A DNA stretch of 64,000 nt from Escherichia phage vB_Ec-G1. The translations under genes were made by a program, and so were the position numbers. Below are positions 12,032-44,709 of the stretch, piece by piece (position 1 is the stretch's first letter; every line of letters starts with the position of its first letter). The stretch lies in the sequence record PQ433349.1. One strand, written 5' to 3'. The notes under the pieces were generated by a model. It had not been told where the DNA came from, searched no databases, and saw only the letters and a program-made list of their open reading frames with translations.

Positions 12032-13006
12032 TTAAACAGCAGCTTCTTCTTTTTCAGGGAAGATAAAGCTTGCAATAACACCAAGAGCTAATGTGCCTAG
12101 AACAATCATCAGACTTACGTTAGGGGAAATATCATGCGGGAGGAATGACCACTTGGCATGAAGTGTTTCACCGAACGGGTGATACATAAGTTTAGCACCG
12201 ACAAATACCAGAACCACAGCAACAGCTTTCTCTAAGTGAACCAGATATTTCACAGCCACACTTAACACAAAGAAAAGTGCACGTAAACCAAGAACAGCCA
12301 TCAGCATTGCAGAATAAACTAGCAGAGGTTCTTGTGTCACACCGATCACAGCCGGAACTGAATCAAAAGAGAAGACAATATCTGTAAGCTCAATAACAAA
12401 CACACAAAGAAGAGCAGGAGTTGCATATTTAATACCATTCTTAATGGTGATGAACTTTTCACCATCCAGTGCATTGTGCACAGGCAGAACTTTACCTACT
12501 AAACGAACAGCCCAATGCTTAGAGTAATCAATATCCTCTTCTTCGTCACCACCTTTGATGATAGCCACGGCAGACCAAGCTACAATCAAACCGAACAACA
12601 CTTGGACCGACCAATGAAGGTTAAACAAAGCGGTCCCTGCTGCAACAAAAATACCTCGGAAGACAATGGCTCCTGCAATCCCCCAAAGTAAAATCTTATG
12701 TTGGAGATGTGTGCTCTTAATTCCAAAGCTTGCAAAAATTGCCATGAACACCATCAGGTTATCTACAGAAAGACTCTTTTCCAACACATAGCCACTTAGG
12801 AAAAGCGCGGCAAACTCTTTACCATGTTCTACCCAAATGAATGCGTAATATCCTAAAGCTAAAGCAATCCAAAAAACAGACCAAAGCAAAGCAGATTTAA
12901 TTCCAATTTCTTTATTCTCTTTATGACCAAAGAAATCAATACCAATAGACAATGCTAAAATACCAACTAAAACAACTACATCAATAATGGGGAAACCAAG
13001 TTGCAT
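12032..13006 (-). CDS. TerC-family integral membrane protein
   Basis: 324 aa; multiple hydrophobic helices; conserved LSVDNLMVF and acidic DGEK features typical of TerC family. Confidence 0.6.
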   Translation of the reverse strand: MQLGFPIIDVVVLVGILALSIGIDFFGHKENKEIGIKSALLWSVFWIALALGYYAFIWVEHGKEFAALFLSGYVLEKSLSVDNLMVFMAIFASFGIKSTHLQHKILLWGIAGAIVFRGIFVAAGTALFNLHWSVQVLFGLIVAWSAVAIIKGGDEEEDIDYSKHWAVRLVGKVLPVHNALDGEKFITIKNGIKYATPALLCVFVIELTDIVFSFDSVPAVIGVTQEPLLVYSAMLMAVLGLRALFFVLSVAVKYLVHLEKAVAVVLVFVGAKLMYHPFGETLHAKWSFLPHDISPNVSLMIVLGTLALGVIASFIFPEKEEAAV

Positions 13007-13087
13007 TATTTTCTCCTTTCTCTTTGCGGGGAACCACTCCCCGCCTCATGTGATACATCTTACTCTATTCTAAAACTTTGTCAACAC

Positions 13088-33072: not shown

Positions 33073-33127
33073 TATTTTAACTTTTTTCATTTTTAGAACA
33101 AAGGTGTCACTTTGTAGCACAGAAATA

Positions 33128-33163: not shown

Positions 33164-33169
33164 TCCTAT

Positions 33170-33520
33170 ACAAACCCTTATCTTTTTCAGTTTGCATCAC
33201 TAGGATTCGATCTAAGTGGGTTCCTGAAGGTCTGCCAATAAGATTAAAGGTTATCTCAAATTCCCACTACCTATTATCTCAAAAATCCCTCAAATTATTT
33301 AAACTTTTTAAGAATTTACAAAAGTGAAAGTTGAAAACCAAAATTTAAAGTTTAGGAAAATTATCTTAAAATGTTAGATACAAAACAAAACTCAAAAATC
33401 AAGGAAAATTTTAAAAATTTTGCGCGCCCACAGTATTTAAAGTTTTTTTGCTTTTACAAAAATGAAAGTACAAAAGCAAAATTTAAAGTTTACAAAAATT
33501 TATGCAGATGGGAATGAGAA
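33170..33520. repeat. AT-rich intergenic region with short direct repeats
   Basis: Repeated TTATCTCAAA, AAATTTAAAGTTTA and TTTACAAAARTGAAAGT units; no ORF. Confidence 0.45.
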
Positions 33521-33620
33521 GAGTTCTCATATGGAAATGCAAATGATAATGATTCGCATTTAGGTTTATAAATGAGATTGATTCTTATTCAATAAGGTAA
33601 ATGATAATCATTCTCATTTA
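33512..33620. promoter_or_regulatory. three tandem palindromic operator-like sites (Fur-box-like)
   Basis: ATGAGAAgagTTCTCAT, AAATGATAATgATTCGCATTT and AAATGATAATcATTCTCATTT; resemble the TGATAATnATTATCA Fur-box core. Confidence 0.45.
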
Positions 33621-33878
33621 AAGAATGACGCGCAGGGGCGGTGTTTGTCTCGCGCTCCCGTGTCCCCTCGCCATGTAATAAGAATAACAGATCCAGCCAG
33701 GAAAGCAAGCGATTATTTTATCTTTACATTTCTTTACAAATATATAGCGCCCAGCCTACCGGCGATCAACCTTCCAACCAGTGCCCCCTGGTATGTTAGC
33801 CCCGCCTTTACGCCGTGGGGTGGCGCTTCCTCTTCTGTATGTAAAACAGTATAAGCCCGATCCCTGGGCTTGTCAAGA

Positions 33879-34145
33879 TTATTTTTTGTTTTCTTGCCAG
33901 GATAGGACACCTAACCAAAAATATATATCGCCCCGCGCCCCTGGTGGTATCTTGCTTTCCCCGCCGCCACTGCAAGCCCATAGATAACCATTTGCGAACG
34001 TATCAAAATGATCTATCTCTTCCACCTTATGATCGCCCAGGTTGAGAACGGTTTCAACCTTTAAGCCCGTTGCGCTTGCTACCTGGTGCACCGTGCCGCC
34101 TTGCCAGCCCAATGAGTGCATAAGGTGTAATGTAGTATTTGTCAT
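33879..34145 (-). CDS. hypothetical protein (88 aa) on opposite strand in a GC-rich island
   Basis: Only minus-strand ORF inside the plus block; GC-rich codons; plausible RBS; function unknown. Confidence 0.3.
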   Translation of the reverse strand: MTNTTLHLMHSLGWQGGTVHQVASATGLKVETVLNLGDHKVEEIDHFDTFANGYLWACSGGGESKIPPGARGDIYFWLGVLSWQENKK

Positions 34146-34254
34146 GGTATCGCCCTTTCTTTGATGTGCGCCCTGGTTGGCGCGGTAGAAAGATGATAGC
34201 CCTTTCTTTTATATATAGCAAGCAAAAAGAAAATAAAAAAGATTGAAAAAGTGA

Positions 34255-34313
34255 TTGACGTTCGCCAGGTGGCGGCATAATATTTACCACGTAGGGCGGC
34301 AATGGTGCCGCTC
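34255..34313 (+). promoter_or_regulatory. cassette 1: promoter + stem-loop
   Basis: TTGACG-N17-TAATAT then GGGCGGCaatggtGCCGCTC. Confidence 0.55.
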
Positions 34314-34332
34314 ATTATTTGGAGTTAAAATC

Positions 34333-34530
34333 ATGGCAACATTGCACATTGTGGCGAAAGCTGGACAAATAAACGTGGTAGTAAACGGTTTTACTGAGTT
34401 CAGTCATCCCCAGGATGATCATGAAACGGTTTTATCTTTCATTGATTCACTGTTAGAAATGGGAGTAATTACAGAAGACCAGCACGCTACAAAATGCAAG
34501 CGCGTTAATCAAATTGCAGGGATAGAATAA
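34333..34530 (+). CDS. small hypothetical protein
   Basis: Track ORF 34255..34530 trimmed to ATG downstream of cassette 1 hairpin with GGAG RBS. Confidence 0.5.
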   Translation: MATLHIVAKAGQINVVVNGFTEFSHPQDDHETVLSFIDSLLEMGVITEDQHATKCKRVNQIAGIE

Positions 34531-34536
34531 AAAGTA

Positions 34537-34599
34537 TTGACAACAAACAACAACCTGATAAGATGTATCACATAGGGCGGCGGAATGGTCCAGCCGCTC
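34537..34599 (+). promoter_or_regulatory. cassette 2: promoter + stem-loop
   Basis: TTGACA-N16-TAAGAT then GGGCGGCGGaatggtCCAGCCGCTC. Confidence 0.55.
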
Positions 34600-34622
34600 A
34601 CAACAGAAGAGAGATTATAATC

Positions 34623-34895
34623 ATGGCATCATATAGCGCAACAATGATCGTAGCTGGCACCACTGGTAAACCTATGCGCGGTGGCGGATCTTTCGCTAAT
34701 ATCAATATTGACGGGCGTTTATCCCTGGACGCAGCGATCACCGTGGCGCGGGAAACATTTAAGAAAGAATGTAAATTCAATAAACAAGATTATCTCGGTT
34801 TCGCTATTGAAAAAACCGCGCGTTTTGTTGATTATAAAAGCCCAAAAATGGTTGATACTACACTAAAAGCGCAAGATGTAGCGTTTTTGCTTTAA
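34623..34895 (+). CDS. hypothetical protein
   Basis: Track ORF 34563..34895 trimmed to ATG after cassette 2 leader. Confidence 0.5.
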   Translation: MASYSATMIVAGTTGKPMRGGGSFANINIDGRLSLDAAITVARETFKKECKFNKQDYLGFAIEKTARFVDYKSPKMVDTTLKAQDVAFLL

Positions 34896-34898
34896 GGC

Positions 34899-34954
34899 TT
34901 GACATTAACGAATAATTTGTTAATATGTTACATAAAGCGGGAATAGTTCCCGCT
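34899..34954 (+). promoter_or_regulatory. cassette 3: promoter + stem-loop
   Basis: TTGACA then GCGGGAAtagTTCCCGC hairpin. Confidence 0.5.
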
Positions 34955-34971
34955 ATTTGTAAGGTGGTAGA

Positions 34972-35229
34972 ATGTTTTACATCAAATTAAAAGGTCACGT
35001 GATCGCGTTCAAAGATAACGCTTTTTACAGATTAGCAAAATATGCGTTAATACATCCCCACTATGTTTATATAAGGGGGCGTGATGAAATAAATATCTTT
35101 GATCAAACAACATGCGAGAACATCGAGATCCGCAAGGTTGGCGTACGTGATTATCGTACATCTTTCTACCCTTGCAAGGATTCAGCAAGTCTTTTTAAAG
35201 TATGCCAATTGTTGAAAAAAGGTGGTTAA
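34972..35229 (+). CDS. hypothetical protein (85 aa)
   Basis: Track ORF after cassette 3. Confidence 0.5.
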   Translation: MFYIKLKGHVIAFKDNAFYRLAKYALIHPHYVYIRGRDEINIFDQTTCENIEIRKVGVRDYRTSFYPCKDSASLFKVCQLLKKGG

Positions 35230-35230
35230 T

Positions 35231-35788
35231 ATGGGCCGCGAATATGTGATCCAGTCTTGGGTAAAACATGAAGCAGATGATCCGCGCATCATTCCCGATC
35301 ATCTTATCGATGAATCCACGGGATATAGCGGTGAGCAAATAGGTAACAGATTAGCACGTAGTAACGGCAACGTAAAAGCGCGTTATGTGCGCCCTGGTTG
35401 GCTGGCAAATGGTAACGCTGATTTATCCAGTGCGGAAGATGCGAGCGACGGCGCGAAAGATAATCCTTTGTACAAAGTTGATCCGGCTTTTCGTGTCCTG
35501 GATGAATACCCCAGCAAGATAGCGGCGCTCGATCAGGCCCTGGAAAGTAAGCGCATCACCTGGACCGCTTACAACATGGCAAAAAACGTACTTGATGGTA
35601 AATTGATTCAAGCTGAAAGAAAATTAGCCAAAATTGCAGCCATAGCCCAGGAGGAAGACGAGGAGACAACGGAAGAGGAAGAGTACGAAGAGATCCCGCC
35701 GTTGTTGTGTGTTGATGCTTTTCCTGATTATCAGCCGACAGAGGAAGAAAAAAGGATCGCACTAGAAAACTTTGAAAATAGTCTTTGA
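35231..35788 (+). CDS. hypothetical protein with acidic C-terminus
   Basis: Track ORF trimmed to ATG after AAGGTGG RBS. Confidence 0.5.
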   Translation: MGREYVIQSWVKHEADDPRIIPDHLIDESTGYSGEQIGNRLARSNGNVKARYVRPGWLANGNADLSSAEDASDGAKDNPLYKVDPAFRVLDEYPSKIAALDQALESKRITWTAYNMAKNVLDGKLIQAERKLAKIAAIAQEEDEETTEEEEYEEIPPLLCVDAFPDYQPTEEEKRIALENFENSL

Positions 35789-35843
35789 CATATCGCCGCC
35801 ACTGGCATAATATTTACCACGTAGGGCGGCAATGGTGCCGCTC
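35785..35843 (+). promoter_or_regulatory. cassette 5: promoter + stem-loop
   Basis: TTGACA-N17-TAATAT then GGGCGGCaatggtGCCGCTC (near-identical to cassette 1). Confidence 0.55.
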
Positions 35844-35870
35844 ATAGTGAAATTATGCAAGAGGCTTACA

Positions 35871-35966
35871 ATGATTAATAAAGAAAATAGCTTGACGGTT
35901 GGAACGATTAACGCTATCATTCTAGCCGTTCCATTTTGGATTGTAGTAGCGGCTATTATTTTCTAA
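35871..35966 (+). CDS. small hydrophobic peptide (~31 aa)
   Basis: Below track cut-off; single predicted transmembrane helix; downstream of cassette 5. Confidence 0.3.
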   Translation: MINKENSLTVGTINAIILAVPFWIVVAAIIF

Positions 35967-35974
35967 AAATATTC

Positions 35975-36036
35975 TTGACAACGTTTTTTAATCTGATAAG
36001 ATGTATCACATAGGGCGGCGGAATACTTCCCCGCCA
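35975..36036 (+). promoter_or_regulatory. cassette 6: promoter + stem-loop
   Basis: TTGACA-N16-TAAGAT then GGCGGCGGAAtacTTCCCCGCC hairpin. Confidence 0.5.
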
Positions 36037-36056
36037 AAACAAAAAAGGGTAACACA

Positions 36057-36419
36057 ATGAGCAAGCAAATCAATACTATCATGTTTAATCTGGTATCTTT
36101 CCGCGATGATATGAAAAATTTACCACGTGAAACGGTTGATATTCATGTTTCAGCTTATCGCGCCCTTATTGACATGTTACCGCTAAAACGTGATCAACAT
36201 GCCGCTAATATGATGCTTAATGCTATGCTTAAAAAGATGATTCAAACGGATCTTACTCTGGCGTATGAGTATCAAGGGCGCTTATATGCGACTTACAACA
36301 AAGCGGTACCTGGTCTGGGAAGTACCGAAGAGTTGCACGGCTTAAACCTGGATCAAAACACTTGGGATAGTATGCGCCGCGTTATGGTATGGGCCGAAAG
36401 CGGTAAAATTTACGAATAA
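36057..36419 (+). CDS. hypothetical protein (120 aa)
   Basis: Track ORF after cassette 6. Confidence 0.55.
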   Translation: MSKQINTIMFNLVSFRDDMKNLPRETVDIHVSAYRALIDMLPLKRDQHAANMMLNAMLKKMIQTDLTLAYEYQGRLYATYNKAVPGLGSTEELHGLNLDQNTWDSMRRVMVWAESGKIYE

Positions 36420-36425
36420 AAACGG

Positions 36426-36482
36426 TTGACACTGTTTAAACTTCTGGTATAGTTTATCACGTAGGGCGGCAATGGTGCCGCC
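36426..36482 (+). promoter_or_regulatory. cassette 7: promoter + stem-loop
   Basis: TTGACA-N17-TATAGT then GGGCGGCaatggtGCCGCC. Confidence 0.55.
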
Positions 36483-36502
36483 AACAATAAAAGGTTAACA
36501 TC

Positions 36503-36682
36503 ATGGCTATCATTGCAAAAACTGAGATTATAGGTTTAGATTCGATCCTCCTGGCTTATGAGGAAACTTTAAAAATGTATGTAGTGACCTATGGTGATTA
36601 TGTGCGTGAATACGAATACATTGATCTTGCTTTCGAATGTTACATTCGCCAGGTCAATAAAGCCTATAATGATTATCGTTAA
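36503..36682 (+). CDS. small hypothetical protein (~59 aa)
   Basis: Below track cut-off; follows cassette 7 with RBS. Confidence 0.4.
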   Translation: MAIIAKTEIIGLDSILLAYEETLKMYVVTYGDYVREYEYIDLAFECYIRQVNKAYNDYR

Positions 36683-36701
36683 AAGTTTTAGTCTTATACT
36701 A

Positions 36702-36753
36702 TTGACAATGAGTGATAGTATAAGCATAATAACTTTTATCGGGAATACTTCCC
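36702..36753 (+). promoter_or_regulatory. cassette 8: promoter flanked by palindrome, short stem-loop
   Basis: CTTATACTAtTGACAATGAGTGATAGTATAAG inverted repeat spanning -35; CATAAT -10; GGGAAtacTTCCC hairpin. Confidence 0.45.
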
Positions 36754-36779
36754 ACTAACCAAAAAGAGAGAGTGACACC

Positions 36780-37145
36780 ATGGCTATTAATATCAATGTT
36801 TCCGCTTATGCTACCCTGGCTAACACGGCTAAAATTGAATTATCCAGCATTGAGGCGGTGCATATTAGCGCCCGTCGCTGGTTTCAACGGTCCTACGGTA
36901 ATACATATTTTTCTTTAATGGTTGACGTTGAGATCGGCGGTAAACTGATCGAGGTGGTTAACGTTCCGTTTCAATATGGCTATGGTGATCATTTTGATAC
37001 CGTCGCCCTGGAAGAATTTAGCAAGGTTATTAATATGGAAGGTAAAGAGTTTTCACGTGGCGCGTATCTTTCCCGTTTTTGCCGTGATAATGGGATCACT
37101 GTATACAGTCATGCAAGCGATGTAAAACGTAAAAAAGATTTATAA
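36780..37145 (+). CDS. hypothetical protein (121 aa)
   Basis: Track ORF after cassette 8. Confidence 0.55.
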   Translation: MAININVSAYATLANTAKIELSSIEAVHISARRWFQRSYGNTYFSLMVDVEIGGKLIEVVNVPFQYGYGDHFDTVALEEFSKVINMEGKEFSRGAYLSRFCRDNGITVYSHASDVKRKKDL

Positions 37146-37151
37146 AAAGCA

Positions 37152-37210
37152 TTGACAGCACGAATAAAAAGAGTAAACTGTATTACATAGAGAGCGGGAA
37201 TAGTTCCCGC
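37152..37210 (+). promoter_or_regulatory. cassette 9: promoter + stem-loop
   Basis: TTGACA then GCGGGAAtagTTCCCGC. Confidence 0.5.
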
Positions 37211-37234
37211 CTCACTGAAAAAGAGAGAAAAATC

Positions 37235-37474
37235 ATGGCTAAATCTAAAATGTACAACGGTCACAAAAACAAAACTCATTGGAATGTAAGCCTGTGGATT
37301 AATAACGATGAGGGATTGTATCGGTTTGCATTGGGATTGATCAATGAGTGCGGTAATAAAGATCAGGCGGCTGATTTAATGTGCTACCGTTTGAAACAGG
37401 ATGGAATCACTACAACGCCAGACGGCTTTAAGTATAGTAAAACTGCAATCCGCGCCGCTATGGTTGGAATGTAA
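37235..37474 (+). CDS. hypothetical protein (79 aa)
   Basis: Track ORF after cassette 9. Confidence 0.5.
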   Translation: MAKSKMYNGHKNKTHWNVSLWINNDEGLYRFALGLINECGNKDQAADLMCYRLKQDGITTTPDGFKYSKTAIRAAMVGM

Positions 37475-37483
37475 TAAAAACAG

Positions 37484-37544
37484 TTGACAACGTTTAAAAT
37501 TAGTGTAAGATGTATCACATAGGGCGGGAAATGGTTTCCCGCTC
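37484..37544 (+). promoter_or_regulatory. cassette 10: promoter + stem-loop
   Basis: TTGACA-N16-TAAGAT then GGGCGGGAAatggtTTCCCGCTC. Confidence 0.55.
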
Positions 37545-37568
37545 ACAACAGAAGAGAGATTAAAGATT

Positions 37569-37796
37569 ATGGCTATCAATATTGTTCGCGTATCCGGTAC
37601 CGTTGGTAACTCCCAGGTTGTAGCAGTTATCACAGAGAAGAAAGGGGATGATCTTCACTCTTCCTTGAATAGCTGGGCGGTCGCTAACTTCGGGCAATGG
37701 TCGAGCGTTGAGTACATCGAATCCTACCAGGTGCCGACGATTAGCCTAACCGATCTCAACGTTGATCGCTTGTTGTGCCTGGATGAATTAATCTGA
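37569..37796 (+). CDS. hypothetical protein (75 aa)
   Basis: Track ORF after cassette 10. Confidence 0.5.
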   Translation: MAINIVRVSGTVGNSQVVAVITEKKGDDLHSSLNSWAVANFGQWSSVEYIESYQVPTISLTDLNVDRLLCLDELI

Positions 37797-37806
37797 AAAA
37801 AGATTA

Positions 37807-37868
37807 TTGACACCGGAAAGAAAAAGAGTAGAATATATTACATAGGGCGGCGGAATGGTCCACCGCTC
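37807..37868 (+). promoter_or_regulatory. cassette 11: promoter + stem-loop
   Basis: TTGACA then GGGCGGCGGaatggtCCACCGCTC. Confidence 0.55.
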
Positions 37869-37891
37869 ACAACAGAAGAGAGATTATCACG

Positions 37892-38107
37892 ATGGCTAAT
37901 ATCCGCACTTTACTGAAAAATGCAAGTCAAGTTTTATTTTCAGATGACGAGTATTTCAATAAAGACATTACAGGCGTGAAAAATTTAAAAGACGTGAAGG
38001 ATGTTATCGGTATCCGTGGATCTTTACGTAAGGGCGATTACTACGGTAACAAGGTGCAATATAAACTGTCAAAGGATTACAATTTTACTTTGACAATTAT
38101 TTCATAA
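37892..38107 (+). CDS. hypothetical protein (71 aa)
   Basis: Track ORF after cassette 11. Confidence 0.5.
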   Translation: MANIRTLLKNASQVLFSDDEYFNKDITGVKNLKDVKDVIGIRGSLRKGDYYGNKVQYKLSKDYNFTLTIIS

Positions 38108-38113
38108 AACCGC

Positions 38114-38173
38114 TTGCAATACTGCAAAAATAAAGTAAACTATATTCATCAAGGCGGGGAATGGTCCGCCGCC
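38114..38173 (+). promoter_or_regulatory. cassette 12: promoter + stem-loop
   Basis: TTGCAA-like -35 then GGCGGGGaatggtCCGCCGCC hairpin. Confidence 0.45.
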
Positions 38174-38197
38174 TAACAAAGAGAAGAGGAAAACATC

Positions 38198-38365
38198 ATG
38201 ATCACTTTCGCTACCCGTGAAGCCGCTCGCAACGTTGCACGTAAAGTTAACGCCGCCAACCTGGGCGCTACGCTTAAAGCCCCGGTGAAAGATGAATCAG
38301 GCAAATGGATCTTCCCTGGTCTGCGTCATGCTGACAAGTTAGGTACTTTAAGCCTTAAAAAATAA
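38198..38365 (+). CDS. small basic protein (~55 aa) starting MITFA
   Basis: Below track cut-off; shares MITFA N-terminus with next ORF. Confidence 0.4.
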   Translation: MITFATREAARNVARKVNAANLGATLKAPVKDESGKWIFPGLRHADKLGTLSLKK

Positions 38366-38368
38366 TCG

Positions 38369-38403
38369 TTGACTTTTCGTTATAGCGCCTTACAATGGGC
38401 GCT
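38369..38403 (+). promoter_or_regulatory. cassette 13 variant: promoter with palindrome overlapping -10
   Basis: TTGACT-N16-TACAAT; TATAGCGCC...GGCGCTATA inverted repeat spans the -10. Confidence 0.45.
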
Positions 38404-38439
38404 ATAGAGAAGAGAAACCACTGCTAACAAGGAAACATC

Positions 38440-38661
38440 ATGATCACTTTCGCTATTGTCGCCGTTGTCGCTGGTCAGGTTTACGTAAACGATACATTCA
38501 CCACAGAAGACAAGGCCGCAGGAGACATAACCGCCGTTTACAATGAGTGCAAGGCAGTAGAAAGGATGTTAGCGCCTTGTATGCTAATGAGTGAACGCCA
38601 GGACGGGATAACAGTATTTACTAACATTGAAACAGGGTACCAAATGGTAGTAACAAAATAA
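38440..38661 (+). CDS. hypothetical protein (73 aa) starting MITFA
   Basis: Track ORF. Confidence 0.5.
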   Translation: MITFAIVAVVAGQVYVNDTFTTEDKAAGDITAVYNECKAVERMLAPCMLMSERQDGITVFTNIETGYQMVVTK

Positions 38662-38664
38662 AGC

Positions 38665-38723
38665 TTGACACGGATTTAATTTTTAGTAAACTGTTACACG
38701 TAGGGCGGGAATAGTTCCCGCTC
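38665..38723 (+). promoter_or_regulatory. cassette 14: promoter + stem-loop
   Basis: TTGACA then GGGCGGGAAtagTTCCCGCTC. Confidence 0.55.
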
Positions 38724-38740
38724 AAAAAGAGAGAAAGACC

Positions 38741-39094
38741 ATGAAAGCACAAAATGCAATTAAAGAGTACATCCTTGCCGCTATCGATTTTAATGATTAC
38801 GGTATTACAACCGAAAAAGAGAAGATCGCGGAATTGATGCGCCGTTTTAATTCCGAGTACTGGTACCCTGATAACCAATCACGTTTTAATTATAGTATTG
38901 TTAAAGCACTTGCATCATGGTTACAAGGCTTGCCATCAGATATCAATATCGCTTTCGAATATTGGGAAATTGATCGCCTGTTAACATCCTGGGGATACAT
39001 TAAAGAGAATAGCAGCGATGATAAAATCCAACGAGAAAGGGAAAATTATTGGCTTTATATTGCAGGCGTGATCCTTGCTTGCTCTTATGAATGA
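38741..39094 (+). CDS. hypothetical protein (117 aa)
   Basis: Track ORF after cassette 14. Confidence 0.55.
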   Translation: MKAQNAIKEYILAAIDFNDYGITTEKEKIAELMRRFNSEYWYPDNQSRFNYSIVKALASWLQGLPSDINIAFEYWEIDRLLTSWGYIKENSSDDKIQRERENYWLYIAGVILACSYE

Positions 39095-39100
39095 TAAACC

Positions 39101-39154
39101 TTGACAATTTTACAAAACAGTTTAAATTAACAATATAGCGGCAATGGTGCCGCT
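39101..39154 (+). promoter_or_regulatory. cassette 15: promoter + stem-loop
   Basis: TTGACA then AGCGGCaatggtGCCGCT. Confidence 0.5.
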
Positions 39155-39173
39155 CATATGAAGAGGAAACAAA

Positions 39174-39320
39174 ATGAATACATCTAATCGCGCAGAAAAA
39201 ATTCAATCTTCCAAGATCCGCAAGGCCTGGAACGAGGAAGTGATCCGCAAAGGCGACAAGCGCAATAAAACAAAGCGCGGGAAGAGTGACAAATATAATT
39301 GGATGGATTTAGAGGATTAA
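39174..39320 (+). CDS. small basic protein (~48 aa)
   Basis: Below track cut-off; RBS AGAGGAAA; followed by terminator. Confidence 0.4.
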   Translation: MNTSNRAEKIQSSKIRKAWNEEVIRKGDKRNKTKRGKSDKYNWMDLED

Positions 39321-39327
39321 CATAACA

Positions 39328-39355
39328 AGGGCGCACCAAGCGCCCTTTCTTTTTA
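39328..39355 (+). terminator. rho-independent terminator
   Basis: AGGGCGC-acca-AGCGCCCT hairpin followed by TTCTTTTTAT. Confidence 0.65.
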
Positions 39356-39375
39356 TATACAGAGGATAAACAAAG

Positions 39376-39561
39376 ATGACTTTAAACGAGCTTAAAACAG
39401 CCTACAACGCAACATTAAAAATAGCCGTGCGTTACCGTGATGCGTATGGTTTTATCGCGCAGGGCGTGATCCTGGGCTTTTCTGACGATGGTTTGATCTA
39501 TGTTGATGCACATCACAACAAGGTTAAACCTGAAAACGTCATTAACATAAAATATCTTTAA
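39376..39561 (+). CDS. small hypothetical protein (61 aa)
   Basis: Track ORF. Confidence 0.45.
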   Translation: MTLNELKTAYNATLKIAVRYRDAYGFIAQGVILGFSDDGLIYVDAHHNKVKPENVINIKYL

Positions 39562-39567
39562 AAACGG

Positions 39568-39627
39568 TTGACACCATAACCGGACCTGTTAAACTGTATT
39601 ACATCAGGCGGGGGAATAGTTCCCCAC
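39568..39627 (+). promoter_or_regulatory. cassette 16: promoter + stem-loop
   Basis: TTGACA then GGCGGGGGAAtagTTCCCC. Confidence 0.5.
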
Positions 39628-39647
39628 CATACAAAAAGGTAAATATT

Positions 39648-39854
39648 ATGATCACCGCAAAACAAGAAAAAATTATTATCGACGTTGCAGCCGTTGCCGC
39701 TATTGCTATTATTGGATCTTATTATGATACCCGTTTCCCGTCGGCTATGCATGAGATCGCCGCCGTTGCATCAGTTGGCGTGCTGTTTTACGTTGGTAAA
39801 CGCTATTTATCACCAATGATTAACAAGCTAACACCGTGGAAAAATAAAGGTTGA
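39648..39854 (+). CDS. small membrane protein (68 aa)
   Basis: Track ORF; hydrophobic segments. Confidence 0.5.
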   Translation: MITAKQEKIIIDVAAVAAIAIIGSYYDTRFPSAMHEIAAVASVGVLFYVGKRYLSPMINKLTPWKNKG

Positions 39855-39905
39855 TCCTGCTTTATATTGTGTTATAGTTATCGTGTAGGGCGGCAATGGT
39901 GCCGC
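39851..39905 (+). promoter_or_regulatory. cassette 17: promoter + stem-loop
   Basis: TTGATC -35 then GCGGCAatggTGCCGC hairpin. Confidence 0.45.
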
Positions 39906-39926
39906 GCCCCCTTTGAGGATGAAATC

Positions 39927-40211
39927 ATGAGTAAAGCTAACACCGTGCTAATGTTTTCCTTGGTTAATGATGCCGCTTACTTGTCCAACATGACGCAGGA
40001 GGGTAACACATTAACGGCAACATTCACCAATAAGCTTAATCGAGTGATCATCATCTCACTGAAAACAATTAGTAAAGGCGTTTACTCGTTAGCTTATCAT
40101 TGGATCACTGATACCAACGAGACAAGCCAGGACTATAGCGCCCCTTTCCCTGAATCAATGGCACGGGAGATCATCGCCGCCGTTGTAAATGATGGTTTGT
40201 TTACTGCATAA
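39927..40211 (+). CDS. hypothetical protein
   Basis: Track ORF 39867..40211 trimmed to ATG after hairpin/RBS. Confidence 0.5.
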   Translation: MSKANTVLMFSLVNDAAYLSNMTQEGNTLTATFTNKLNRVIIISLKTISKGVYSLAYHWITDTNETSQDYSAPFPESMAREIIAAVVNDGLFTA

Positions 40212-40229
40212 AATAATTTAGAAAAAGGC

Positions 40230-40286
40230 TTGCAATCATTTTGAGATAGTGTATATTTAATTCATAGGGCGGCGGGAATAGTTCCC
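40230..40286 (+). promoter_or_regulatory. cassette 18: promoter + stem-loop
   Basis: TTGCAA-like -35 then GGCGGGAAtagTTCCC. Confidence 0.45.
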
Positions 40287-40309
40287 AAGGCAAACGAGAG
40301 GATTACACG

Positions 40310-40429
40310 ATGAGCAAGTACACAGTAGAATACACGGTACAAAATCCGGCAGTATCCGAAGGTAAAAAGATGACATTTGCCATCAGTATAATCGCTTTCG
40401 TTGTCACTATCTTATTAATCATCTTATAA
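40310..40429 (+). CDS. small hydrophobic peptide (~39 aa)
   Basis: Below track cut-off; C-terminal transmembrane helix; RBS GAGAGGA. Confidence 0.3.
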   Translation: MSKYTVEYTVQNPAVSEGKKMTFAISIIAFVVTILLIIL

Positions 40430-40439
40430 GGTGCGTACC

Positions 40440-40601
40440 ATGAAAACAACAGACATTATCAAAGAGATCGCCCTTGCCGCTGACGTTGAGATCGAGGAAG
40501 TGATCGCGCTCAATCTTACAGAAGAAGACTTGCGCAATTATGAAGCGGAAAGCGTGAAAGCAAGCGGCGCGGTCCTGGCATATAATCCGGCTAACAAGTA
40601 A
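40440..40601 (+). CDS. small acidic protein (~53 aa)
   Basis: Below track cut-off; same direction, short spacing. Confidence 0.3.
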   Translation: MKTTDIIKEIALAADVEIEEVIALNLTEEDLRNYEAESVKASGAVLAYNPANK

Positions 40602-40610
40602 GGGGATAAC

Positions 40611-40760
40611 ATGAATCCGAAAGATATGCAAGCATGGAAAGGGTACGACGATCTAAGCGCCTTGCGCAATAAGTCAAGCCGTAACCTTAGACGGTTAGAA
40701 GCAAAGAAAAAGAAAAACAGTTTGACAAGTCCGCTTAATCTGGTAAAGTGTATCTCGTAG
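40611..40760 (+). CDS. small basic protein (~49 aa)
   Basis: Below track cut-off; GGGGA RBS; 3' end overlaps next cassette. Confidence 0.25.
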   Translation: MNPKDMQAWKGYDDLSALRNKSSRNLRRLEAKKKKNSLTSPLNLVKCIS

Positions 40761-40778
40761 GGCGGCAATGATGCCGCT
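40722..40778 (+). promoter_or_regulatory. cassette 19: promoter + stem-loop
   Basis: TTGACA then GGGCGGCaatgatGCCGCTC. Confidence 0.55.
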
Positions 40779-40798
40779 CACAAGAAGAGAGAAAAATC

Positions 40799-41083
40799 AT
40801 GAAGATCACAAAAAGCCTAACTAATTATGCAGCACGTCGCGGATTATGCTTAACCGTTGAAAACTTAGGGAAAGAAGATTTTTTGTGTTTTTGGGAGCTT
40901 GAAAATGATTGCGAGTGGATGTTTTCTTATTCTATCTGCGAAGATCAAAACGGTTGTTTGTTAACCTGGCGCGGTAATATCTATTTACCGCAAGAAATTA
41001 AAGAGGAATTACCAGGTACGATCATGACAGAGAGACAGCTTAAGGAAGTGATCAATTTTGTAGGGCAAAACATTAAAAAATAA
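40799..41083 (+). CDS. hypothetical protein (94 aa)
   Basis: Track ORF after cassette 19. Confidence 0.55.
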   Translation: MKITKSLTNYAARRGLCLTVENLGKEDFLCFWELENDCEWMFSYSICEDQNGCLLTWRGNIYLPQEIKEELPGTIMTERQLKEVINFVGQNIKK

Positions 41084-41084
41084 T

Positions 41085-41146
41085 TTGACAGCAGGCAAAC
41101 AACGTAGTAAAGTTTATCACATAGGGCGGGAAATGGTTTCCCGCTC
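41085..41146 (+). promoter_or_regulatory. cassette 20: promoter + stem-loop
   Basis: TTGACA then GGGCGGGAAatggtTTCCCGCTC. Confidence 0.55.
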
Positions 41147-41167
41147 ACAGCAGAAGAGAGACACATC

Positions 41168-41338
41168 ATGATCCCGACTATGTTTTATGTATCGCGCAAA
41201 GGTCACAATATTTTTTGGTCTGAAGATTTAAATGAAGCTATGACGTTTGCCCGTGATCGTGTTGCTATCGGTGGCGTTAATATCACCGTAACCGATGAAA
41301 ACGGCATTGAATACTATAACGGCGACGATGAAGAGTAA
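41168..41338 (+). CDS. small hypothetical protein (~56 aa)
   Basis: Below track cut-off; follows cassette 20; followed by AAGCTGTATT...AATACAGCTT hairpin. Confidence 0.4.
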   Translation: MIPTMFYVSRKGHNIFWSEDLNEAMTFARDRVAIGGVNITVTDENGIEYYNGDDEE

Positions 41339-41397
41339 TTAACAACCTGGAAGCTGTATTTTTACAATACAGCTTAAAAGGTGTAGTAAAATAATTC

Positions 41398-41467
41398 TTG
41401 ACAATAGTTTGTTACTTGATAGAATGTATCACGTAGGGCGGGGCAATAAGGCAACGCCCATTAATGA
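41398..41467 (+). promoter_or_regulatory. cassette 21: promoter + stem-loop
   Basis: TTGACA then GGGCG...CGCCC hairpin with larger loop. Confidence 0.45.
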
Positions 41468-41477
41468 GGGTAGAATC

Positions 41478-41582
41478 ATGTTAGAGAAAATTTTCACGGT
41501 TGTAATAGTAGGCCTGGCGTTATCGGTTGGAGTGGTTGCAACTATGGCTAACATGATCCTATCTTCCCACGGTATCGATTAA
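41478..41582 (+). CDS. small hydrophobic peptide (~34 aa)
   Basis: Below track cut-off; single transmembrane helix. Confidence 0.3.
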   Translation: MLEKIFTVVIVGLALSVGVVATMANMILSSHGID

Positions 41583-41592
41583 GGTGAAACAG

Positions 41593-41808
41593 ATGATCAC
41601 GAACAAAACAGGCAAAACAGAATTTTTACGCGGCTTACAAGTCGGTAAGCCTGAGATCTGGCATTGCAGCAAGTCGGCGCATAACGAAATGAAAGACTTT
41701 ACCGCTACTTTACAACGTGTTAAAATATCTATCACACAGAAAAAAGCCTTGTTAGTAGTAGAAAACGAGATCCCGCAAACTATTATTATTGTCGAGCGTA
41801 CAGCATGA
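41593..41808 (+). CDS. hypothetical protein
   Basis: Track ORF 41584..41808 trimmed to ATG after AAGGTG RBS. Confidence 0.5.
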   Translation: MITNKTGKTEFLRGLQVGKPEIWHCSKSAHNEMKDFTATLQRVKISITQKKALLVVENEIPQTIIIVERTA

Positions 41809-42191
41809 AAACAGAAATCATTATTGAAATCATCAACGGTTATAAAGAAGCCTTTATTTTTGCTGAATCAGCCAGGGATCACGAAGGTAATTTTATTGAT
41901 AACTTAGACGATTATGATTTTTCAGATCAAGCCCATCAGCGGATCGCCCAGGATGTAACAGCCTTTATTAATGCTAATCTTGCCGCTATCTCTGAGGCAA
42001 TGAGCGACGGCGCAACAGCCAACCAGATCGGGAATGATTTACATTTTACCCGTAACGGTCACGGCGTAGGATTTTGGGATCGCCCTGAAATATACACCAC
42101 TAACACGGCGAACCGCCTAACCAATGCAGCTAAGTTTATGCCGAATGTGTCGGCTTACATTGGTGAAGATAATTTGATTTATATTGAATAA
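41805..42191 (+). CDS. hypothetical acidic protein (128 aa)
   Basis: Track ORF, overlapping start/stop with upstream gene. Confidence 0.55.
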   Translation: MKTEIIIEIINGYKEAFIFAESARDHEGNFIDNLDDYDFSDQAHQRIAQDVTAFINANLAAISEAMSDGATANQIGNDLHFTRNGHGVGFWDRPEIYTTNTANRLTNAAKFMPNVSAYIGEDNLIYIE

Positions 42192-42197
42192 AAAGTA

Positions 42198-42254
42198 TTG
42201 ACACAGATCGCCAGTGTGCTAATATTTACCACGTAGGGCGGCAATGGTGCCGCC
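42198..42254 (+). promoter_or_regulatory. cassette 23: promoter + stem-loop
   Basis: TTGACA-N17-TAATAT then GGGCGGCaatggtGCCGCC. Confidence 0.55.
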
Positions 42255-42272
42255 GATAACGAGGAAAGTAAA

Positions 42273-42572
42273 ATGGAAACTATCGCTATTGTTACCGTAG
42301 AAAAACTGGTTGTTGGTGATGTATTCGCGTTAATGGTGCCTAACAGCAGCAAGCTGGGCGCTTATGAAGTGATGGACCATAAAAATGAATCATTTGGCGA
42401 CGGTTGCACAATGGCGGTAAGATCCTTAAAGGATGGAATCATCCGCCAGGCTAACTGGCACAAAGGGAATCAAGTCGGTTTAATATCAGCTAATTTCTTG
42501 CCAGAAGAGCAAACATTAGACCAACTATCAGGCGGTAAGACGTTAGCCGAACTACTGGAAACAGCGATCTAA
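42273..42572 (+). CDS. hypothetical protein (99 aa)
   Basis: Track ORF after cassette 23; followed by GGGGCGgcaaCGCCCC hairpin. Confidence 0.55.
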   Translation: METIAIVTVEKLVVGDVFALMVPNSSKLGAYEVMDHKNESFGDGCTMAVRSLKDGIIRQANWHKGNQVGLISANFLPEEQTLDQLSGGKTLAELLETAI

Positions 42573-42625
42573 TCAACAAAGGGGCGGCAACGCCCCATTA
42601 AACGCAATAGGAAGAGGATAGACAC

Positions 42626-42916
42626 ATGAAAAAGATGATCGCAGTAGTTGCCCTGGTTGTTGGTATTAACGCGCCTGTACTGGCTAATGAGTTGCCAGAA
42701 TCCATCACGCTAACCGATATCCACGCAATAAACCGGATCGGCGTTAATTATCGCCTATGCCTTGCCGCTAAAACTTTTAAGGACGGCGAAACAGAATATC
42801 ACGGATTCGAGGGCATCCGCTGCGGTGAGCTTGCACGCGACCTTAAGGAAGATCCAGACCTTGAGGCCATACCGATGACCGTAAACGGTAAAGCCTACGT
42901 AAGCCGCCAACAATGA
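42626..42916 (+). CDS. secreted hypothetical protein
   Basis: 96 aa; signal peptide MKKMIAVVALVVGINAPVLA. Confidence 0.55.
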   Translation: MKKMIAVVALVVGINAPVLANELPESITLTDIHAINRIGVNYRLCLAAKTFKDGETEYHGFEGIRCGELARDLKEDPDLEAIPMTVNGKAYVSRQQ

Positions 42917-43047
42917 GAAAGGTAATCATCACAATGGGGATCATAGTAGCGACGCTGGCGCTTATCCCCTTTATAGTTGAATATGTGCTGATAAGTGTTG
43001 TCCTGGTAGTCAGTGACCTATTGGAAACGGTTGGCAACTGGTTTTAA
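42913..43047 (+). CDS. small hydrophobic peptide (~44 aa)
   Basis: Below track cut-off; ATGA overlap with upstream stop; hydrophobic throughout. Confidence 0.3.
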   Translation: MRKVIITMGIIVATLALIPFIVEYVLISVVLVVSDLLETVGNWF

Positions 43048-43225
43048 AAATAAGAAAAACAGGACTTGTTTTTGTTCTGTTTTTTGTTATACTTATTGAA
43101 CGGGCGGCACCTGGAAGCAGGGGGAAGATAATCACCGGAAGACCCCGCTATATATTGATAACTAACGCCTATCAAACAACAAAACATCAAAGGAATAAAC
43201 TATCAAATCTTTACAATTCTACCTA

Positions 43226-43286
43226 TTGACACCGGATCACGCTTACATTATTATTTATCACGTAGGGCGAGCAATACAGCAAGCCC
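43226..43286 (+). promoter_or_regulatory. cassette 24: promoter + stem-loop
   Basis: TTGACA then GGGC...GCCC hairpin. Confidence 0.45.
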
Positions 43287-43304
43287 ACAAAGAGGAAAAT
43301 AAAA

Positions 43305-43672
43305 TGAGCAAATCAGCAATTAAAGCACTTGAAAAAGCACAAGAAGTGATCGCAACGTCAACCACTGGCGCAAAGGTTAATCTTGTTGGTTATCTGACAG
43401 ATGAAACTATCCGTAAAAATTGGCGTAATGCTGATTTACTGGCTTGCTTATTGATTAATAGTGTCGCTAATGCTTTCCAGTGTGAAACAGTCGAGAGCCT
43501 GGAAGAAAACTTGTTCGACAATATGGATCAAGCCATTGAAATATATATTCAATCCAACTTAGATAGCTGGAACAGTAAAACATGGCCTGACAGCTTACGC
43601 AATACAACTGATCAACTGATCCGCCTTGCGGTGATGGTTGAACGCGATAACGTTTACAACAGCACAAAGTAA
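43305..43672 (+). CDS. hypothetical protein
   Basis: Track ORF 43226..43672 trimmed to ATG after RBS GAGGAAA. Confidence 0.55.
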
Positions 43673-43692
43673 GATTATACAAGGGGCGCACT

Positions 43693-43720
43693 AAGCGCCC
43701 TTTATTTTTGCCCGAACAAT
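43693..43720 (+). terminator. rho-independent terminator closing the cassette array
   Basis: AGGGGCGC-acta-AGCGCCCT hairpin followed by TTATTTTTG. Confidence 0.65.
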
Positions 43721-44688
43721 GTTGATAGCTTAAACCTATGAAAAACCGACACAGAACAAAATTGCATAATTTGCGCTATCGAGCTAATCAACCATTAAAC
43801 GAATAACCATACATCCCAGGGAAACAGGTTGTTAGAGAGCTATTTAGAGCGGTTAAAATCGATCTACAACCAACAACAAACCATCAAAAACACCCTTTTA
43901 CCTCCTTTCTAGTGCAATGATAACCATTATCATCTACCTATGATTATCTATTCAATATAAGTGCATAACTATAATGTTGATAATAGTTCGCAACAACTAA
44001 CCCACCAACAACCTAAAACAATAAGCAAACTAATCATAATCAAAGGAATAATAGCAAGATGATTGATAACGACAAACAATCAAACCATGATGAATATTAA
44101 GCAAGATAACGATAACACGACAAAACAACCAACTAACGAACAATAACAAACGAAACCATTAAAAGATCAACTATTAGCAAAATAGTGCCTATTGCCATAA
44201 TAGTGACTTAATGAAATCATTACAAAATGAATCATTCCAAGGATCATCATTAGCACGCTACGCCGGACACGTAGCGAGCTAATAATAAGCCAACTACACC
44301 CCAACAATCATAACCATCGGTGACGGTTATTTCTTGTTACTGCGTAGCTTGCAATAATTGCAAGCGTAATGACGCTTACACTTATTGCGCTGGCTTATTA
44401 TTAGCATTATATGTAATTACCAAGATCATAACATTAGCGCAATAACAATAATCATTGTGGTAATTACAAGATGAAATCATTAGCAAGATGAATAATTGCA
44501 CGTAGCAACATGAGCGAATAGCGACAGGTTGCATAGTGTGCACATAGTGTATAAACATACAAGAAAATAAAGGCTAATCTTTTGGGGGCGAATACTATCG
44601 CGTAGCGATATGTTGAGCACCTTCTCTTAAACGTAAATAAAATCAGAAAATTCTTGATTTATTTTAGTTTTTATGTTAATAAACGTTT

Positions 44689-44709
44689 AAATAATAATCA
44701 TTCTCATAT
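44689..44709. promoter_or_regulatory. Fur-box-like operator site
   Basis: AAATAATAATCATTCTCATAT resembles the sites at 33541-33620. Confidence 0.35.

Follow-up and report, generated by a model that had tools for sequence, protein, structure and literature searches.

The DNA analysed here, referred to as the window, is a 64,000-nt stretch of the genome of Escherichia phage vB_Ec-G1 (PQ433349.1), and all coordinates given below refer to it. On its + strand, from 34255 to 43712, lies an array of about 9.5 kb that comprises 30 small genes encoding proteins of 31-185 aa, 22 of which have their own copy of a repeated cassette made up of a promoter, a hairpin and a leader. A read-through of the sequence, a promoter plus hairpin scan and an nhmmer profile yielded 21 canonical units and one variant (at 38369) between 34255 and 43306, all on the + strand, in agreement with the recurring unit described in the original prediction, which had been made from the sequence alone. 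The canonical unit spans about 85 bp and consists of the -35 hexamer TTGACA, a spacer of 16-17 nt (mostly 16), the -10 hexamer TAnnnT that is often TG-extended, a further 9-11 nt (typically about ten, reading tatCAC[A/G]TA), a hairpin of 8-11 bp that is rich in G+C, a leader of 17-23 nt that is unstructured, rich in purines and contains the Shine-Dalgarno sequence, and an ATG whose context is frequently ATCATGGC. The promoter arrangement (TTGACA, 16-17 nt, TAnnnT) is present in 20 of the 22 units, and the sequence upstream of the -35 is A-rich (TAAAAA...). The commonest hairpin reads GGGCGG...CCGC[T/C]C around AATGG, AATAG or AAATGG.

A strict form of the pattern (TTGACN, N15-19, TANNNT, N5-12, TAGGGCGG) has 12 matches, all of them on the + strand within 34255-42241, where 0.01 would be expected by chance. 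In an independent consensus promoter scan the cassette promoters were the top + strand sigma70 matches of the region, agreeing at 9-11 of 12 positions. The distance from unit to unit is 190-492 bp, with exceptions of 800, 886 and 1028 bp where two to three genes share one unit. The eight genes without a cassette (the gene set derives from gene calling plus Shine-Dalgarno inspection) are translationally coupled to, or lie close behind, a cassette-bearing gene. Two elements of the original prediction need to be qualified. The conserved leader is found exactly, as CACAACAGAAGAGAGATTA, in three units (34537, 37484 and 37807) and near-exactly in two more (40722 and 41085), but the others are merely purine-rich; and the loops are more varied than the AATGGT and ATAGT that had been proposed, as ATGG, TAG, TGG, TAC, ATGA, AATAAG and AATACA are all present.

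The individual units are given with intervals whose first position is the start of the -35 hexamer. Cassette 1 (34255..34335) has the -35 TTGACG, the -10 TAATAT (34278-83) and a hairpin at 34294-34313 (GGGCGGCAATGGTGCCGCTC), followed by the ATG of g1 (65 aa) at 34333. Cassette 2 (34537..34625) combines the -10 TAAGAT (34559-64) with a hairpin of 10 bp plus an A bulge (34575-34599) and the leader CACAACAGAAGAGAGATTA, before the ATG of g2 (90 aa) at 34623. The -10 TAATAT recurs in cassette 3 (34899..34974; hairpin about 34936-34954, AGCGGGAATAGTTCCCGCT), which precedes g3 (ATG 34972) and, behind it, the cassette-less g4 (35231). Cassette 4 (35785..35873; hairpin 35824-35843) drives a 31-aa hydrophobic peptide, g5 (ATG 35871), and cassette 5 (35975..36059; hairpin about 36014-36035, GGCGGCGGAATACTTCCCCGCC) stands before g6 (ATG 36057). 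Cassette 6 (36426..36505), with the TG-extended -10 TATAGT and a hairpin at about 36465-36482, precedes g7 (ATG 36503) and is the crossover partner in a deletion in phage SKA64, described below. The hairpin of cassette 7 (36702..36782), at 36741-36753, is short and weak (GGGAATACTTCCC, -5.5 kcal/mol; g8, ATG 36780). Next come cassettes 8 (37152..37237; hairpin about 37190-37213, GAGAGCGGGAATAGTTCCCGCCTC; g9, DUF7249, ATG 37235) and 9 (37484..37571; 10-bp hairpin 37522-37544, GGGCGGGAAATGGTTTCCCGCTC; g10, ATG 37569), and the leader of the latter is canonical. The same canonical leader is found in cassette 10 (37807..37894; hairpin 37845-37868; g11, ATG 37892), the 5' half of which forms part of a hybrid in phage nieznany; the 3' half of that hybrid corresponds to cassette 11 (38114..38200; -35 TTGCAA; hairpin about 38152-38174; g12, ATG 38198).

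Cassette 12 (38369..38442; TTGACT, 16 nt, TACAAT; g13, ATG 38440) is the variant. Its palindrome at 38382-38405 (ATAGCGCC..GGCGCTAT) differs from the other hairpins, and the -10 TACAAT sits in the loop. Cassettes 13 (38665..38743; hairpin 38703-38723; g14, ATG 38741) and 14 (39101..39176; hairpin 39137-39154) follow, the second in front of g15 (ATG 39174), a T7 gene 1.1 homologue. The hydrophobic protein g17 (68 aa, ATG 39648) lies behind cassette 15 (39568..39650; hairpin about 39607-39628), and g18 (ATG 39927) behind cassette 16 (39851..39929; -35 TTGATC; hairpin about 39888-39909). Cassette 17 (40230..40312; -35 TTGCAA) has a degenerate hairpin at about 40267-40291, of which the 3' arm is decayed (about -8 kcal/mol); it precedes g19 (39-aa membrane peptide, ATG 40310) and the cassette-less g20 and g21. 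Cassette 18 (40722..40801; hairpin 40760-40779; g22, ATG 40799) forms the left end of a 1.4-kb deletion in nieznany and cassette 21 (42198..42275; hairpin about 42237-42254; g27, ATG 42273) the right end, the latter being an insertion site in SKA64 as well. Between them lie cassette 19 (41085..41170; hairpin 41124-41146; g23, ATG 41168) and cassette 20 (41398..41480), whose hairpin at 41436-41459 contains an internal loop (GGGCG-GG-GC-AATAAG-GC-AA-CGCCC) and which serves g24 (34-aa hydrophobic peptide, ATG 41478) and the cassette-less g25 and g26. The last unit, cassette 22 (43226..43306), belongs to the same internal-loop class (hairpin about 43265-43286) and precedes g30 (122 aa, ATG 43304).

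The genes behind the units are unrelated to one another, as had been predicted. A PHROG is matched by 29 of the 30 proteins, in 29 different families, and one gene has no match; all annotations are of unknown function, except for one 39-aa 'membrane protein'. Pfam matches in the array are limited to DUF7249 (g9) and Phage_1_1 (g15). The product of the latter gene (39174-39320, 48 aa, basic) matches this family, that of the T7 early gene 1.1 protein, at E = 5e-13, and a T7 early gene family is thus found inside a myovirus early array. The claim that several of the products are tiny hydrophobic peptides applies to four of them, g5 (31 aa), g19 (39 aa), g24 (34 aa) and g29 (44 aa). One further protein has two hydrophobic segments and another a signal-peptide-like N-terminus.

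Pairing and position of the hairpin

The pairing of the two hairpin arms is maintained through sequence change. When the 22 units were aligned with plain MAFFT, the arms of longer and shorter hairpins did not end up in matching columns, and the alignment was unusable for pair counting; a covariance model was therefore built from the 10-bp hairpin class and used to align the remaining cassettes. The aligned set comprised 110 cassettes, 75 of them distinct, of the window and of nine relatives; these are paralogues and orthologues and not independent samples. Of their pair cells 94.0% hold standard pairs, versus a mean of 86.4% after shuffling. Six of the ten pairs have changed on both sides (41 cells), none of 500 shuffles reaches any of the observed measures, and sliding the partner by 1-3 columns brings the pairing down to 40-71%. 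For the 18 cassettes of the window-only set the values are 95.3% paired and five of ten pairs changed on both sides; here four of the five measures are matched or exceeded by 0-1 of 500 shuffles, and the fifth, the number of further pair types, by 76 of 500. The main compensatory positions are pair 7 (GC in 44 and CG in 25 sequences) and pair 8 (AU in 59, GC in 11). Moreover, paired insertions give stems of 8, 9, 10 or 11 bp, a second architecture with an internal loop exists (41436 and 43265), and some relatives carry unrelated hairpins at the same position, such as GGGGCGACAAGCGCCCC and GGGGCAACGCCCC. The original prediction had argued for a conserved RNA structure as opposed to a drifting duplication, and had named a chance test of the compensatory changes as one possible refutation. 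In the shuffling test two-sided changes proved commoner than chance, although the independent events are few, and a structure conserved through change appears well supported.

G-U pairs are frequent in the stems; for pair 2 the counts are GU 37, GC 33 and AU 4. Of 41 distinct hairpins, 26 fold better as the sense strand and 11 as the antisense strand (Wilcoxon p = 0.02). Together, the strand-asymmetric folding and the G-U pairs point to an RNA read off the + strand more than to a symmetric DNA site. A comparison of orthologous cassettes gave no clean signal of purifying selection on the stems (substitutions are 5.4% in stems versus 9% in spacer and loop), and their stem differences are mostly switches of the whole hairpin class.

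The free energy of the hairpins ranges from -11 to -17 kcal/mol, with the two weak exceptions at 36741 and 40267. In 73 of 99 distinct cassettes the first paired base lies 9-11 nt 3' of the -10, the outliers being parsing artefacts or weak hairpins; within the window this holds for 21 of the 22 hairpins, and that of 38369 lies over the -10. E. coli RNA polymerase usually starts 6-9 nt past the -10, preferentially at a purine that follows a pyrimidine. Since both the distance and this preference fit, the predicted transcript start is the purine of CAC[R]TAG, and the RNA would begin with R-U-A and continue into the stem, so that three nucleotides would precede the hairpin. Eight predicted leaders folded as three free nucleotides, the hairpin and a fully unpaired segment with the Shine-Dalgarno sequence and the AUG, with z-scores of -2.6 to -4.4.

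The array hairpins do not appear to be intrinsic terminators, since a T-rich tail follows only one of the 22 (34294, cassette 1); elsewhere the stem is followed by ACAAC, AAAAC or ATA. Furthermore, the hairpin lies downstream of its own promoter, and an efficient terminator at that place would thus be self-defeating. The true + strand terminators of the array, as found in a terminator scan, are an internal one 3' of g15 (39327..39355; AAGGGCGCACCAAGCGCCCTT followed by a T-run) and a strong one at the array end (43681..43712). A search of Rfam 15 gave no match at the gathering score in the whole window and none at E <= 1 in 33000-45400, and a tRNA/tmRNA search gave no match either. Processing of the hairpins by RNase III was set aside, as stems of 8-11 bp are too short for it.

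Junctions and distribution of the cassettes among related phages

The region aligns over 98-99% of its length, with 94-95% identity, to the genomes of Phapecoctavirus vB_EcoM-P3322, Mt1B1_P17, tuntematon, ESCO13 and other phAPEC8-like phages, which are myoviruses of about 150 kb that belong to the Stephanstirmvirinae, and the phage of the window is itself a Phapecoctavirus. By chained blastn we compared the array with those of tuntematon, ESCO13, SKA64, Mt1B1_P17, nieznany, VEcB, muut, WPEC4 and ZYD, and about 30 distinct indel or replacement events were identified relative to these nine phages. Cassettes cover 19.8% of the array and contain 34 of the 60 junction endpoints (binomial p = 3e-10), an enrichment of about three times chance in which the endpoints of distant comparisons are somewhat biased towards the cassettes as the most conserved segments. 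At least one endpoint lies in a cassette in 21 of the 30 events (p = 1e-4). Seven other endpoints coincide with three other hairpins or terminators (42581, 43681): the terminator at the array end is a recurrent indel junction, and so is a non-cassette GC hairpin 3' of g27 (42581..42596; GGGGCGGCAACGCCCC), with an overlap of 16 bp. The cassette-bounded replacement that the original prediction proposed to look for between related genomes is observed.

Two further kinds of evidence are free of the alignment bias. The alignments that flank many of the junctions overlap by 12-77 bp of cassette sequence, which we read as the signature of a crossover between repeats. In addition, hybrid cassettes could be read base by base. 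Phage nieznany lacks g11 and has a cassette in which the upstream region, -35 and spacer are those of cassette 10, and the sequence from the -10 onward, with leader and gene, is that of cassette 11 and g12. In SKA64 the promoter and leader of cassette 6 are joined to g8, and g7 and cassette 7 are absent; the switch point lies within CATGGCTAT, at the start codon. Finally, orthologous cassettes in front of the same gene often differ in hairpin class among phages, with both arms changed together, a pattern that indicates gene conversion among cassettes. The proposal that the array is a platform for gene shuffling is borne out by these junctions and hybrids.

Used as a blastn query, a single cassette matched 140 phage records, every listed one of 136-156 kb. 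Almost all have an organism name with Escherichia, Phapecoctavirus or Justusliebigvirus; among them are Phapecoctavirus and Justusliebigvirus (the phi92 group) as well as a few Vequintavirus (FV3 and slur12, for example). The architecture occurs in two subfamilies, the Stephanstirmvirinae and some Vequintavirinae. A scan of IMG/VR with the strict pattern returned only five contigs, of 97-153 kb, and no match to the cassette was found in 5,426 complete E. coli genomes. Because of these two results, the cassette is restricted to this lineage and is not a host or prophage repeat. Of the 23 cassettes that the complete tuntematon genome contains, 22 form one homologous array and the remaining one lies at TerC, and the cassette is thus also confined to one region; the other small-gene regions of that phage are packed as ordinary operons. 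The nhmmer profile likewise found a single copy outside the array within the 64 kb of the window, on the - strand (13004..13084; TTGACA, 16 nt, TAAGAT, hairpin GGCGGGGAGTGGTTCCCCGC), upstream of a TerC-family gene (12032-13006). We did not find a description of the cassette in the literature on rV5, the phAPEC8-like phages, phi92 and the Stephanstirmvirinae, although an earlier mention is possible; the rV5 paper lists 33 promoters and mentions no hairpin.

Several features around the array, or of the records retrieved with it, deserve mention in their own right. TelA (8707-9819) and TerC (12032-13006), on the - strand between 8707 and 13084, are tellurite-resistance-type genes carried by the phage, and TerC is driven by the sole cassette outside the array, in the window and in tuntematon alike. 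Upstream of the array, a gene for a CapR-domain / HNH-type endonuclease (30980-31981) measures 999 bp in tuntematon versus 1461 bp in ESCO13, nieznany and WPEC4, a variation in length consistent with a mobile homing-endonuclease locus beside the array. The ORF-free segment 33072-33880 (ORF, open reading frame), in which the tuntematon record annotates a 'repeat_region', contains a 72-nt direct repeat (33291-33362 and 33429-33500) and three to four tandem repeats of about 29 nt (33513-33620) with the cores AATGATAATGATTCGCATT and AATGATAATCATTCTCATT. These cores resemble the E. coli Fur box (GATAATGATAATCATTATC). The repeats could serve as a site that is regulated by iron or titrates Fur, or else as origin iterons. 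Within the array, the non-coding segment 43054-43230 between g29 and cassette 22, which opens with a T-rich terminator-like hairpin (43054-43085), is 90% identical to Justusliebigvirus VEcB, more than its flanking genes are; its part 43096-43225 shows no more structure than shuffled sequence does (z = +0.18), and no Rfam family matches the segment. Directly behind the array terminator follows an AT-rich, ORF-free region of 1.5 kb (43720-45229), conserved in relatives, with small tandem or inverted repeats at 44171-44240 and 45114-45163 and an inverted repeat at 44278/44391. The Mt1B1_P17 record starts inside this region, at about 44943, and the region may be a genome terminus, a packaging site or a replication origin. 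With respect to the records themselves, 'Campylobacter phage' entries near-identical to E. coli Phapecoctavirus appeared 17 times in one search and nine times in the single-cassette search (e.g. B15, A145 and A142, with C. jejuni listed as host), next to one 'Acinetobacter phage' and one 'Pseudomonas phage', which suggests mis-assigned hosts or contaminating coliphages in the deposits.

Proposed function of the array and alternative explanations

On balance we favour, as the rather probable explanation, that the array is a set of modular immediate-early cassettes, in which the 5' hairpin stabilises or insulates the mRNA and the repeats are recombination substrates for gene shuffling. Host sigma70 RNA polymerase would transcribe each cassette immediately after infection without the need for a phage factor, a timing suggested by the sigma70 consensus promoters, by the homologue of T7 1.1 and by the parallel with the T4 early regions. 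Transcription would start at the purine of CAC[R]TAG, the G+C-rich hairpin of 8-11 bp would fold after three unpaired nucleotides, and the open purine-rich leader with its Shine-Dalgarno sequence would be left free for ribosomes. A 5'-terminal stem-loop with no more than about four unpaired nucleotides would block the 5'-end-dependent attack by RppH and RNase E, and we propose that the very short early mRNAs would therefore live longer. Emory, Bouvet and Belasco, as well as Bouvet and Belasco, reportedly established in 1992 that 5'-terminal stem-loops stabilise E. coli mRNAs, and it is because such a structure with few unpaired nucleotides protects against RppH and RNase E that we assign the hairpin this putative role. 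As there are few terminators between the units, each hairpin would also be internal to read-through transcripts from upstream promoters, where it could hold up 3'-exonucleases and, as a structural insulator, leave the following ribosome-binding site accessible. At the DNA level, the tandem copies of about 85 bp in the same orientation are, as the comparison with relatives shows, substrates for homologous recombination and gene conversion, by which a gene between two cassettes is deleted, inserted or swapped while an intact hybrid cassette is always left before the next gene. Being repeated and self-contained, the cassettes would thus make the array a platform for expression and for gene shuffling at the same time.

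A number of observations weigh against this reading. The literature on this phage group yielded no data on transcript starts, timing or half-lives, and the placement of the hairpin at the 5' end relies on the usual distance from -10 to start. E. coli RppH requires unpaired 5' nucleotides much as its B. subtilis counterpart does. For the latter enzyme at least two are needed (review PMC3997798). Three unpaired nucleotides are at the limit of what RppH can use, and the protection may be partial only. The distance between hairpin and ATG is constrained too (17-23 nt), and therefore the spacing cannot separate a role linked to the promoter from one linked to translation. The conservation of CACRTAGGGCGG, which spans the predicted start, exceeds what pairing would demand by itself and could reflect a sequence-specific factor, and the cassettes 36702 and 40230 persist in relatives with weak or decayed hairpins. 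With respect to the pairing, the alignments were fitted to a structure model and there are few independent covariation events, as a handful of hairpin classes has spread by duplication and conversion. Finally, about 40% of the junction endpoints lie outside cassettes, several of them at other hairpins, terminators or gene boundaries.

In a first alternative, a dedicated protein of phage or host would recognise the hairpin RNA as a specific tag and control the whole early regulon together, be it by timed translational repression or decay (as with RegA/RegB of T4), by antitermination (as with lambda N/boxB) or by exemption from phage-induced degradation of host mRNA. The hairpin would be at the same place in every early transcript, its loop and closing region are semi-conserved (G[G/C]AAT[G/A]GT[T/G]C), and the 5' flank with the base of the stem (CACRTAGGGCGG) is nearly invariant. 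Srd of phage T4 stimulates RNase E. A probable Srd homologue is reported for related phages in the rV5 paper, and an Srd-like activity would create the need for a mark that separates phage from host mRNAs. However, at least eight loop variants, three stem architectures and stems of 8-11 bp occur, and wholly different hairpins can substitute, a diversity more readily reconciled with a generic structural role than with a site for one specific protein. In addition, an Srd-like or RNA-binding protein was sought near the array and among the scanned window proteins (50 proteins, a subset of the window ORFs) and none was found, and no Rfam family matches, even at E <= 1. A dedicated tag therefore seems doubtful to us. 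We regard as rather unlikely its more elaborate form, in which the hairpin is a shared 'self' tag on the immediate-early phage mRNAs that doubles as a homology patch, and in which the factor that reads it either spares phage messages when the phage triggers a purge of host mRNA that depends on RNase E (Srd-like) or shuts the whole early regulon off at the early-to-middle transition. If true, a newly captured gene would join the regulon in a single recombination step.

In another alternative the hairpin would mainly be a terminator or attenuator that limits read-through and leaves each gene to be expressed from its own promoter only. Such a function is known for the stem-loop of a promoter early stem-loop (PeSL) unit of phage phi1, which cut lacZ expression about as much as rrnB T1, and the array hairpins are likewise G+C-rich and intergenic, with a T-rich tail in cassette 1. 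Yet the A/C-rich sequence behind the other 21 hairpins, their place downstream of the unit's promoter, where efficient termination would abort the unit's own transcript, and the use of T-run terminators where they are needed (39327 and 43681) make this explanation improbable. Alternatively, the inverted repeat could be a double-stranded DNA operator at about +3 to +25, through which a dimeric repressor of phage or host shuts the early promoters together. Polymerase-blocking repressors typically have their site just past the start, and the outer half-sites GGGCGG and CCGC(T/C)C are conserved. However, these half-sites are separated by anything between 8 and 13 nt, the symmetry at the DNA level is interrupted by G-U (G-T) positions and by bulges, folding is better for the sense strand, the inner arms are not conserved but change in a compensatory way, and unrelated palindromes replace the repeat at the same position, all of which renders an operator very unlikely. 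Least credible is that the repeats are the residue of a tandem duplication of one promoter region with a functionless hairpin. The copies are clearly homologous, and the evident gene conversion could hold them similar without selection, but the genes between them are unrelated, the pairing survives two-sided changes and paired insertions or deletions, and the architecture persists across the Stephanstirmvirinae and some Vequintavirinae.

If the array does consist of express-and-shuffle cassettes, it singles out about 30 small genes that would be expressed immediately early, strongly and each on its own, and that are frequently exchanged. Factors for host takeover and anti-defence would be expected to show such a profile, and the genes are candidates that provide a short list for functional screens. 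Likewise, the repeats would explain much of the variation in gene content among therapeutic phages that are otherwise 95% identical. The cassette itself would be a compact natural expression module, with a strong promoter, a 5' hairpin and an open ribosome-binding site, and its more than 40 natural hairpin variants could be used as candidate mRNA-stability parts.

Comparison with known systems

A stem-loop a few nucleotides from the 5' end followed by an open ribosome-binding region is the geometry that hinders 5'-end-dependent decay by RNase E and RppH. The predicted leaders would share it with hp1 of the ompA 5' untranslated region, with papA and with the T7 phi10 leader, which all have a stable stem-loop near the 5' end and an open ribosome-binding region behind it. 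These are, however, single elements on individual mRNAs, whereas here more than 20 copies are repeated within a recombining promoter cassette, and the stabilisation is suggested by analogy. A small hairpin that is transcribed just 3' of early promoters is also known from lambda nut boxB/N and HK022 put. In contrast to boxB, which has a strictly conserved, GNRA-like loop of 5 nt and occurs twice per genome, the array has about 22 copies with variable loops and stems, and neither an N-like protein nor downstream terminators to override were identified. The resemblance to integron attC arrays concerns the tandem arrangement of small, unrelated and variable genes bounded by imperfect palindromes, with a content that varies between close relatives. 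But attC sites lie behind ORFs that lack a promoter, and the adjacent integrase IntI recombines them in the form of folded single strands, whereas the array units lie upstream of the ORF and carry their own promoter, no integrase was found among the 50 proteins scanned, and the hybrid junctions resemble ordinary homologous crossovers.

The closest parallel, already drawn in the original prediction, is that with the PeSLs. These combine sigma70 early promoters with stem-loops in T4-like phages, cluster upstream of genes of unknown function (ORFans) in hyperplastic regions and bring about modular shuffling (Arbiol et al. 2010, PMC2839356; Comeau et al. 2014, PMC4122927). Their stem-loops, for which termination of transcription was demonstrated, take five positions, most often between or over the hexamers of the promoter, and recombination between neighbouring motifs yields encapsidated mini-circles (PMC2839356; PMC4122927). 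The array shares with them the short repeated intergenic units made of an AT-rich upstream sequence, a near-consensus sigma70 promoter, a G+C-rich stem-loop and a Shine-Dalgarno/ATG segment, the concentration of these units before small genes of unknown function in a hyperplastic region, and the location of indel junctions between close relatives in the units (here 34 of 60 endpoints versus 19.8% expected). Unit 38369, with its hairpin over the -10, even has the layout of the commonest PeSL subclass. On the other hand, PeSLs have been claimed only for T4-likes (Tevenvirinae-type) and the lineage here is Stephanstirmvirinae. There is no detectable sequence homology, the blastn matches being almost all Escherichia, Phapecoctavirus or Justusliebigvirus by name. 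The hairpin is fixed in the predicted transcribed leader in 21 of 22 units and does not take five variable positions, and, unlike the terminating PeSL stem-loops, it lacks a T-run in 21 of 22 units. The resemblance therefore stands as an analogy and fails as membership: the array cassettes work like PeSLs as a module for shuffling and expression, but because the phage family, the hairpin position and the absent terminator features all differ, they are not PeSLs. With the PeSLs the general idea of such cassettes had already been established, and what appears to be new here is the predicted transcribed 5' hairpin and the lineage that is not T4-like. Modular express-and-shuffle cassettes would thereby be extended from the T4-likes to unrelated large coliphages that are widely isolated for therapy (Phapecoctavirus and Justusliebigvirus), which would suggest the convergent evolution of a general design for hyperplastic early regions.

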